Assembly: GCF_017348835.2 (NCBI RefSeq) | Contig: NZ_CP071375.1 | DNA: 64,000 bases | Origin: Escherichia coli | GTDB taxonomy: Bacteria > Pseudomonadota > Gammaproteobacteria > Enterobacterales > Enterobacteriaceae | Strand: one strand, 5' to 3' | In this document: in pieces, positions 20,714-24,326 of the stretch | How positions within the stretch are numbered: position 1 is the first letter of the stretch | Layout of the letters: the number at the start of each line of letters is the position of its first letter | Notes under the pieces: model-generated | What the model was told of the DNA's origin: nothing | Databases searched by the model: none | What the model saw: only the letters and a program-made list of their open reading frames with translations | Made by a program: the position numbers and the translations under genes

Positions 20714-23517
<2,804 letters not shown>

Positions 23518-23549: not shown

Positions 23550-23582
23550 AACTGAACTTAATTTATAAAATTAAGTTCAGTT
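23550..23582. terminator. Perfect 15-bp inverted repeat with 3-nt loop; likely bidirectional terminator between convergent nikR and hicB-like gene
   Basis: AACTGAACTTAATTT-ata-AAATTAAGTTCAGTT; U-rich tract follows on the minus strand. Confidence 0.5.
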
Positions 23583-23636
23583 GCATAGATAGATCCTGTA
23601 AAGGCAGATATTCTGCGTAATGTACGCCGCTATAAG

Positions 23637-23996
23637 TTATAAATGATTCAAACGCTCATTCAGTGTTTCAATAATATAGGTATTAACAGAGACTTGTTGC
23701 TGCGCAGCCGCATTATTAAGGCGTTCACTCAGCGATTCTGGATAACGTAACGTAAAGGTTTTAATCTTTTCTGTACGCGCATACGGCTCAATACCCGCAG
23801 CTTTACAATCCTCAAGATACTCTCGCAGGGAAAGCTCTCCTTCTTTTTGCAGCCCCTGAATACTGTCAGAGACAAAATCACAATAACCTGACAAGCCCAG
23901 GAATTTGCCACGAAATGCATTCAGTTCTGGCACGTAAGTGATAACTGCAGGTTGCCCGGCAATCTCCATAGAGTTTGGCGTCTTCAGTTTGATCAT
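23637..23996 (-). CDS. HicB-family antitoxin-like protein with C-terminal RHH DNA-binding motif, 119 aa
   Basis: 119-aa ORF; C-terminal TFTLRYPESLSERLNNAAAQQQVSVNTYIIETLNERL resembles a CopG/RHH motif; start codon overlaps the stop of an upstream HicA-like frame (ATGA). Confidence 0.6.
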   Translation of the reverse strand: MIKLKTPNSMEIAGQPAVITYVPELNAFRGKFLGLSGYCDFVSDSIQGLQKEGELSLREYLEDCKAAGIEPYARTEKIKTFTLRYPESLSERLNNAAAQQQVSVNTYIIETLNERLNHL

Positions 23997-24268
23997 GGTT
24001 TTACCCCTATACTTAGTAACCAGTCACGCACGCTTTCTACAGCGCCTTTATCGGTATCTGGCGACGGATGAGGCCGATGGAAACACGCAACGCTCATATT
24101 TAGTATGAACTTACAACGCGAACCTCTTCCTTCCTTAATTTCTCCGCCTAACGCTTTAACCAGAGATTCTATATCAGTCCATTTGATTCCTTGAGGTAAA
24201 GGTGATTTAAATAGCTGATCCAGTGTGTTTTTTTGTTTCTTTCGTAAAGCCTGTACCTGTGTTTACAT
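23993..24268 (-). pseudogene. HicA-like mRNA-interferase toxin frame with in-frame TAA as codon 2 (ATG TAA ...); probably inactivated, or initiated non-canonically
   Basis: Minus-strand frame reads M*TQVQALRKKQKNTLDQLFKSPLPQGIKWTDIESLVKALGGEIKEGRGSRCKFILNMSVACFHRPHPSPDTDKGAVESVRDWLLSIGVKP*; HicA-like GS..F...HP core; only in-frame ATG downstream would give 34 aa. Confidence 0.45.
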
Positions 24269-24326
24269 GGCATTCCCTTATGACTTCACTTTATGACATC
24301 ACAGTATGAAGTCAAGTTTCCCTTCC

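Follow-up and report, generated by a model that had tools for sequence, protein, structure and literature searches.

The HicAB toxin-antitoxin (TA) system of Burkholderia pseudomallei (PDB 6G26), a member of class 4, is encoded by linked genes in the order hicA then hicB and combines a ribbon-helix-helix (RHH) antitoxin with palindromic boxes in its promoter (PMC10865869). The subject of this report is a cassette of the same general layout, carried on the minus strand between nikR and yhhJ in a 64,000-nucleotide stretch of Escherichia coli contig NZ_CP071375.1 (assembly GCF_017348835.2), which we refer to throughout as the window, and in which the second codon of the toxin gene hicA is a stop. 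Here too hicA lies directly upstream of hicB on one strand, and the HicB protein has a HicB domain and, by weak matches, an RHH-like end; the locus departs from the class 4 systems in that its proteins find no sequence-level match to the solved HicA and HicB and in that its toxin gene is interrupted. The hicAB locus of E. coli K-12 (b4532/b1438) encodes a toxin of the same Pfam family but is a different locus, with a HicA of 58 aa and a HicB of the helix-turn-helix rather than the RHH type. Compared with canonical HicA proteins, the 91-aa subfamily to which the window's frame belongs has an N-terminal helical extension of ~29 residues, absent from the K-12 protein, and G-S-R-(C/V/I) at the G-S-H position. 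The closest counterpart is the pair ECs_4357/ECs_4356 (hicA/hicB; WP_001259388.1, WP_001260301.1) of strain Sakai, at the same site beside yhhJ and with ~96% nucleotide identity. Sakai-type loci are intact, with a hicA that begins ATG AGA and encodes 91 aa, four operator-like boxes and the -10 hexamer TACTAT; in the window the gene begins ATG TAA, the boxes number three and the hexamer is TAAAGT. Intact alleles of the locus in several strains encode the same HicB protein as the window and have the same ATGA overlap between the two genes.

Orphan antitoxins are reported to be abundant across E. coli lineages, and anti-addiction or regulatory roles have been proposed for them (PMC10790755). As in those loci, the antitoxin has been kept here and the toxin probably lost, with the difference that the toxin frame is still near-complete and annotated as a gene, so that a survey based on the presence of genes would count an intact pair. 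Start-stops, in which a start codon is followed at once by a stop, have been mapped in E. coli by retapamulin ribosome profiling (bioRxiv 10.1101/520783). Those share a Shine-Dalgarno sequence, an ATG and an immediate stop with the one described here, but they lie out of frame inside active genes, whereas the start-stop of the window sits at what was originally a gene's own start and goes back to mutation of the second codon. We judge it probable, at roughly three chances in four, that the cassette is a class-4-type hicAB module whose hicA has become a pseudogene and whose HicB is retained as a repressor or antitoxin. Toxin decay with the antitoxin kept is a familiar outcome, of which this allele is then a common and ordinary case.

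The start-stop in hicA and the intact hicB

The hicA start codon (ATG, 24268-24266, minus strand) is followed directly by TAA (24265-24263), and the six nucleotides 24263-24268 thus read ATG TAA where the orthologues read ATG AGA. A first-pass annotation of the window had reported this in-frame stop and proposed a comparison with other E. coli, which places a sense codon, AGA, at codon 2. The hicA-like frame (23993-24268, minus strand) comprises 91 codons including the TAA and stays open past it for 89 further codons, to a TGA at 23995-23993; its translation after the stop is TQVQALRKKQKNTLDQLFKSPLPQGIKWTDIESLVKALGGEIKEGRGSRCKFILNMSVACFHRPHPSPDTDKGAVESVRDWLLSIGVKP, which includes the core quoted in the first-pass annotation. 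With codon 2 filled in, the protein matches Pfam HicA_toxin (PF07927, E 9.7e-9) over residues 30-80 and model positions 1-52 of 58. This match, together with that of HicB given below and the RefSeq names of both proteins, upholds the earlier description of a HicA-like frame beside a HicB-like gene. A Shine-Dalgarno-like AAGGGA (24274-24279, minus strand; AAGGAC in intact alleles) ends 5 nt 5' of the start-stop ATG, and a second ATG, at 24273 and in another frame, follows it directly. The next in-frame ATG, GTG or TTG after the stop is the ATG at 24097, which would leave 34 aa; the first-pass annotation had named this as the sole canonical restart, correctly, and had not considered the in-frame CTG codons at 24223 and 24163 or codons such as ATC, ATA and ATT. 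The frame as it stands accordingly has a stop at codon 2, a restart yielding 34 aa and, as the only start that spans the toxin domain, a CTG without a Shine-Dalgarno sequence.

The antitoxin gene is in a different state. hicB (23637-23996, minus strand) encodes an intact protein of 119 aa with a match to PF05534 over residues 60-112 (E 3.5e-15), in agreement with the first-pass annotation; the C-terminal RHH motif that it also named is suggested by weak matches of residues 76-116 to Arc (0.018), CopG_antitoxin (0.022) and a FitA-like RHH family (0.35), and the best small PDB match to the protein is Arc repressor (E 0.27). The same HicB protein (WP_000593555.1) is found in strains with the TAA allele, with an intact toxin and with a frameshifted toxin (Z22-7), and hicB of the window differs from that of intact-toxin alleles by 5-6 synonymous and 0 non-synonymous changes, from which it is evident that the gene is constrained. 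The hicA TGA overlaps the hicB ATG (23996-23994) as ATGA (23996-23993), an arrangement kept in all orthologous loci examined. In addition, hicB has a Shine-Dalgarno-like AGGGG of its own (24004-24008, minus strand), 7 nt 5' of its ATG, and RNA folding of the hicA-hicB junction found no structure beyond that of shuffled sequence (z +1.75, less stable). Since the junction is predicted to be unstructured, there is no sign that ribosomes must first traverse hicA for the hicB ribosome-binding site to become accessible, and with the AGGGG this makes independent initiation at hicB plausible. The earlier statement that translational coupling is preserved holds for the overlap, but the coupling would be inoperative in the absence of ribosomes translating hicA. 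For a hicAB operon that yields the antitoxin alone there is a precedent in K-12, where the transcript of one promoter makes HicB and not HicA (PMC10865869).

Upstream of hicA, a consensus scan finds a promoter-like TTGACT-N16-TAAAGT (24288-24315, minus strand), which is putatively the promoter of the operon. Over it lie three operator-like TGAnnTCA boxes (24281-24314, minus strand; 13 nt from start to start), recognised from the inverted repeat TGACTTCA/TGAAGTCA and from alignments: TGACTTCA at 24314-24307, TGATGTCA at 24301-24294 and TGAAGTCA at 24288-24281. Intact alleles have four such boxes, and the four-box region of Sakai includes a 21-nt imperfect palindrome. The window lacks 14 bp (TGATGTCATACTAT), with the junction near 24302/24301; they correspond to a single unit of a direct repeat of TGATGTCATA and hold one TGAnnTCA box together with TACTAT, the -10 hexamer of intact alleles. 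With the 14 bp gone, TAAAGT takes up the -10 position, and the scan still scores the sequence as promoter-like. Palindromic promoter boxes and their binding by HicB have been described for hicAB operons (PMC10865869), and by analogy an RHH-type HicB would be expected to bind the TGAnnTCA boxes here.

These features suggest how the allele may work. Ribosomes loading at AAGGGA would start at the ATG at 24268 and terminate at once on the TAA, and because of this immediate termination no 91-aa HicA would be made. HicB would be translated from its own AGGGG site, and would most likely still repress the promoter through the three remaining boxes. If the orphan HicB has a role today, it may be autorepression or the neutralisation of related HicA toxins. 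As judged from sequence matches, a role against incoming HicA toxins finds no support in close plasmid or phage homologues: a search for such homologues, as would fit anti-addiction, found none, true plasmid records being below 60% identity. The E. coli matches above 90% in the plasmid collection are chromosomes, an 82% match in Klebsiella aerogenes belongs to a 791-kb record, and the phage matches are to Ralstonia and Burkholderia phages.

Spread of the allele and origin of the lesion

When the cassette was searched for with an 811-bp query in 5426 complete E. coli genomes, it was found in 2076, always on the chromosome. A 74-nt probe that begins one base before the ATG-TAA was matched at 100% identity in 790 of the 5426 (about one in seven, or ~15%), and the corresponding Sakai probe identified the intact ATG-AGA allele of 91 codons in at least 983 genomes; some 300 of the 2076 carriers matched neither probe and were left unclassified. 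The cassette that the first-pass annotation ascribed to "this strain" is therefore present as described but is not peculiar to it, the TAA allele being common. The window itself represents a rare sub-variant, which only 3 genomes match with 99% identity or more across the 811 bp. The sampled genomes with the TAA allele (rows H2-H15 of the search) share the 14-bp deletion, since all of them align to the window without gaps.

The lesion is not apparent in current annotation. RefSeq places on the TAA allele a coding sequence (CDS) of 231 nt, not marked as a pseudogene, for a HicA of 76 aa (WP_042014162.1; 2608-2838 in both L001 and L002, corresponding to 24223-23993 of the window), where the hicA of intact alleles is annotated with 91 aa, and the 76-aa sequence is found on at least 1000 contigs in a collection of 15 billion proteins. 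With 790 genomes and a CDS that begins at a CTG, the lesion is common, old enough for wide spread, and hidden in annotation. It is also one of several, and disruption of hicA beside an intact hicB is recurrent and independent within E. coli. An A7 run in hicA (24228-24234, minus strand; codons 11-14, KQKN) is a site of length variation elsewhere, with frameshifts in P0127 and P0133 and a 3-nt deletion beside the run in JNE21-003; P0013 has an internal deletion, P0029, P0064 and P0068 have replaced N-termini, P0051, P0089, P0092 and P0093 have 3' frameshifts, and P0126 is truncated and called from the TTG of codon 16. The frameshifted hicA of Z22-7 is annotated as a pseudogene. HH97 was set aside, its assembly looking poor and both of its genes having multiple frameshifts. 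The Prokaryotic Genome Annotation Pipeline (PGAP) apparently rescues the frameshifts in the A run with a non-ATG start (ATA, by our reading of the window sequence), giving products of 95 aa in P0127 and 96 aa in P0133. Because PGAP calls CTG and other non-ATG starts, broken alleles pass as ordinary toxin genes, and because RefSeq displays an intact 76-aa HicA, surveys of TA systems in E. coli count a probably dead toxin as part of a live pair; flagging the CTG-start "toxin" would alter the TA repertoires tallied for many of the strains. One locus with intact, common start-stop and other broken alleles beside one conserved antitoxin amounts to a natural series, suited to the question of why antitoxins outlive their toxins.

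Compared with the alleles of the Sakai, HB-Coli0, CT282 and SCU-102 types, hicA of the window shows differences that fall mostly in codons 2-39 and that are, depending on the allele, 10-13 synonymous and 4-7 non-synonymous (the stop counted as non-synonymous), which as a pattern of substitution is that of a sequence that diverged while coding. An exact-sequence look-up found three metagenome contigs (L010-L012) on which this gene body occurs with an Arg codon in second place, which have the usual 5' end GGACATGCCATGAGAACC and in which the 14 bp are present. The major TAA allele (KSC207 type) differs from these by seven substitutions, six of them in a 16-nt stretch that takes in the Shine-Dalgarno sequence, the start codon and codons 2 and 3; not one of 200000 random placements was as clustered. 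This result amends the first-pass view of a TA module whose toxin was inactivated by one nonsense substitution while the antitoxin was kept: the stop and the intact hicB stand, but the single-substitution route does not, since AGA to TAA needs two changes and is accompanied by three further substitutions within the 16 nt and by the 14-bp deletion of promoter and operator. When codon-2 neighbours of TAA were looked up in the 15-billion-protein collection, there was no K, Q, E, S or Y; R was found on three contigs and L on one. Pattern scans found no window-type allele with a base other than T in the first position of codon 2 among Joint Genome Institute (JGI) metagenome contigs, and no window-type allele of any kind among the GTDB species representatives. 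The single Leu case is a contig from a metagenome in the European Nucleotide Archive (L013, 127-402; coverage 0.69), of the major TAA type and with the 14-bp deletion, which reads GGGAATGTCATG and has TTA at codon 2, whether through reversion of one base or through an error in the reads.

The window differs in turn from the major TAA allele by four synonymous changes in hicA, at codons 47-51 and Sakai-like, and by six synonymous changes in hicB, and this Sakai-type patch and the hicB changes indicate recombination among alleles. We envisage that the TAA allele arose from an intact one with the same gene body by compact changes or by recombination over a short patch; the repeat-mediated loss of 14 bp and five clustered substitutions at the ribosome-binding site and start would then have been followed by wide spread in E. 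coli. The cluster itself may have come from an unsampled allele as a short recombined patch, have arisen in one complex mutation, or be the product of stepwise selection against translation of the toxin.

Possible routes to a HicA protein

Several observations weigh against reading hicA as a pseudogene. Past the TAA, the body of the gene is without further decay in the alleles examined, and it differs from that of the intact allele L010 at a single site. An undecayed frame fits a young pseudogene and equally a frame under selection. RefSeq treats the TAA allele as coding, and the AAGGGA-ATG signal has been kept rather than destroyed.

The alternative that fares best, although we regard it as unlikely, is that the pair is live and that a functional HicA of 76 aa is weakly translated from the CTG of codon 16 (24221-24223, minus strand), the RefSeq/PGAP start of WP_042014162.1, to which the CDS coordinates map (24223). 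In addition to the PGAP call and the frequency of this protein among contigs, the Pfam domain (codons 30-80) would be complete in such a product, the A-rich leader ahead of the CTG is predicted to be unstructured, the downstream frame is undecayed, and intact alleles carry TTG at codon 16. The first-pass annotation had allowed for a downstream start that gives a complete toxin domain; the RefSeq CTG would do so, but as a start it is weakly supported, and the Pfam match leaves the frame HicA-like. The 20 nt upstream of the CTG (GAAAGAAACAAAAAAACACA) hold no Shine-Dalgarno sequence, translation in E. coli initiates very poorly at CTG, and the PGAP call is driven by homology. The product would also lack residues 1-15. 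In an AlphaFold model of an intact 91-aa E. coli homologue (alignment of 106 sequences; predicted local distance difference test score, pLDDT, 91.6), confident N-terminal helices at 2-6 and 10-19 precede an alpha-beta-beta-beta-alpha core, and a start at codon 16 would thus remove a conserved N-terminal element, comprising helix 2-6 and most of the conserved helix 10-19. In the alignment of 91-aa HicA proteins, conservation is 90% or higher at each of T15, L16 and F20, and no aligned natural full-length homologue starts at codon 16, the latest start among them being at residue 8.

It is also rather unlikely, in a reading that overlaps with the pseudogene, that the start-stop and its Shine-Dalgarno sequence have been selected as a regulatory leader in the conversion of hicAB to a hicB-only operon, with the loading and release of ribosomes tuning transcript stability, Rho polarity or the translation of hicB. 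The clustering of the substitutions at the ribosome-binding site and start, with the rest of the gene unchanged, would suit such selection, as would the keeping of the Shine-Dalgarno sequence and ATG and the remodelling of the promoter by a 14-bp deletion after which it still scores. Functional start-stops have been documented in E. coli genes (bioRxiv 10.1101/520783), but in yecJ, the one start-stop tested for an effect of this kind, the effect was small, at ~16% (bioRxiv 10.1101/520783). Moreover, the cluster may be one recombination patch or complex mutation, and with ~270 nt of untranslated RNA between the start-stop and hicB a direct effect on initiation at hicB is not obvious.

That the five clustered changes and the promoter deletion have rewired the module and left the ATG-TAA allele alive in a conditional sense, with HicB made constitutively and the toxin made rarely or under particular conditions, through the CTG of codon 16 or through -1 slippage at the A7 run out of the upstream ATG frame, seems improbable to us; if it were true, ~15% of E. 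coli genomes would hold a TA pair whose toxin is gated by non-canonical translation. Less probable still is recoding as such, whether initiation at the upstream ATG (24273) with -1 slippage at the A7 run, which alone is plausible as a slippery site, or slippage of RNA polymerase on that run, or readthrough of the TAA. The changes that created the TAA did drop the TGA that closed the upstream frame (ATG CCA TGA became ATG CCA TGT AAA), and since that TGA was removed the upstream frame is now open for 34 codons across the A7 run; the HicA frame is -1 relative to it, and length variants of the A run are known from P0127 and P0133. The upstream ATG, however, directly follows the Shine-Dalgarno sequence, from which it is spaced too closely, while the ATG of the start-stop lies at a good distance. 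Read in the upstream frame, C AAA AAA A does not conform to the canonical heptamer X XXY YYZ, no downstream stimulatory structure is predicted in the leader (z +0.84 against shuffled sequences), and an A7 run is short for efficient transcriptional slippage. TAA followed by A is an efficient terminator. The peptide of the upstream frame is absent from the 15-billion-protein collection, and the A run simply encodes the conserved KQKN. Finally, an artefact of sequencing or assembly, for which one could cite the TTA in place of TAA on the contig of coverage 0.69 mentioned above, is refuted by the identity of the 74 nt in 790 independently assembled complete genomes, which shows the stop to be no sequencing error.

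The 91-residue HicA subfamily and the surroundings of the cassette

The translation of the hicA frame belongs to a family that is widespread in Enterobacterales. Its relatives number 1799 among 5.8 billion protein clusters, almost all of 91 aa, with Citrobacter, Klebsiella, Enterobacter, Serratia, Dickeya, Pectobacterium, Xenorhabdus and Photorhabdus among their sources; they carry PF07927 and go by the name HicA family toxin. Older records bear the name "hexulose-6-phosphate synthase", a propagating annotation error that PGAP also gave to the frameshifted copy in HH97. An NCBIfam scan assigned neither protein of the cassette to a family at E values up to 0.1, and searches of PDB sequences with the HicA protein, with a profile of 22 HicA sequences and with HicB gave no meaningful match. 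In the AlphaFold model the core, for comparison with the dsRBD-like fold of HicA toxins, consists of a helix at 30-39, strands at 43-46, 51-56 and 59-64, and a helix at 74-86. The best small-protein matches of a Foldseek search against the PDB are HicA structures (6g26_E, 1whz and 6hpb_C), with E values of 0.4-1.9 that are not significant, and the modelled core superimposes on 6g26_E with a template modelling (TM) score of 0.66 (target-normalised) and a root-mean-square deviation of 2.7 A over 63 columns. From the Pfam match, the topology of the fold and the gene context, the frame is accepted as HicA-like.

The canonical catalytic residue of HicA we take to be the His that follows the conserved G-S in the loop between beta1 and beta2, which is His24 of the B. 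pseudomallei protein and His23 of that of E. coli K-12. The 91-aa subfamily has G49-S50-R51-(C/V/I)52 in the corresponding place (window 24122-24111, codons 49-52; the correspondence is by eye) and no His there. R51, F63, H64 and D73 are invariant in the subfamily and FHRPHPSPDTDKGA is nearly so; H64 lies within FHRPHP, as does the nearly invariant H67. To judge from these residues, the subfamily may have another active site, or may be no RNase. Alignment of the family profile with K-12 HicA by hhalign, tried for the catalytic His, covered 13 columns on the wrong helix and was unusable. The biochemistry of the 91-aa HicA, with its extension and without His at the canonical catalytic position, is a matter for the family and not for this allele; a literature search that included the Sakai and EDL933 locus tags found no experimental paper on the locus or the subfamily. 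Two PLSDB records, NZ_CP134663.1 and NZ_OL790696.1 (H101 and H102), are E. coli chromosomes of 4.8-4.9 Mb filed as plasmids, and each matches the HicA query at two places, which at the level of sequence suggests a second, more distant paralogue of the subfamily in some E. coli chromosomes.

The cassette occupies the place that the first-pass annotation gave as that of rhsB in K-12, and the annotation of K-12 MG1655, with the order nikR, rhsB, yhhH, yrhC, yhhI, yhhJ, and a BLASTN comparison bear this out. The window is homologous to K-12 as far as 23523 and again from 24327, and from these breaks the segment 23524-24326 of the window (803 bp) can be seen to stand where K-12 has the ~6.7 kb of rhsB-yhhH-yrhC-yhhI. 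The stop codon of yhhJ lies at 24327, and the elements of the cassette follow it, reading on the minus strand, as far as nikR (23116-23517), which is convergent with hicB. Between these two genes is an AT-rich palindrome (23550-23582), terminator-like on the minus strand, with a perfect 15-bp stem, arms AACTGAACTTAATTT and AAATTAAGTTCAGTT, a TAT loop and a T-rich tail; it is absent from K-12, whose homology stops just past nikR. yhhJ (24327-25535) has a GTG start and 402 aa in the list of open reading frames and 1125 nt (374 aa) in RefSeq, for an identical gene in PE164; the mismatch in length is a difference of ORF calling only. In the O157:H7 strain Sakai (L003, 3258-5719), hicB is followed not by nikR but by genes for a gatY-like aldolase, an HPr-like protein of the phosphotransferase system and a fuculokinase-like protein, and the presence of these sugar genes in the place of nikR indicates that strains of the Sakai type have an extra island inserted on the hicB side. 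About a quarter of the carriers of the cassette align only to position 705 of the 811-bp query (rows H29-H38).

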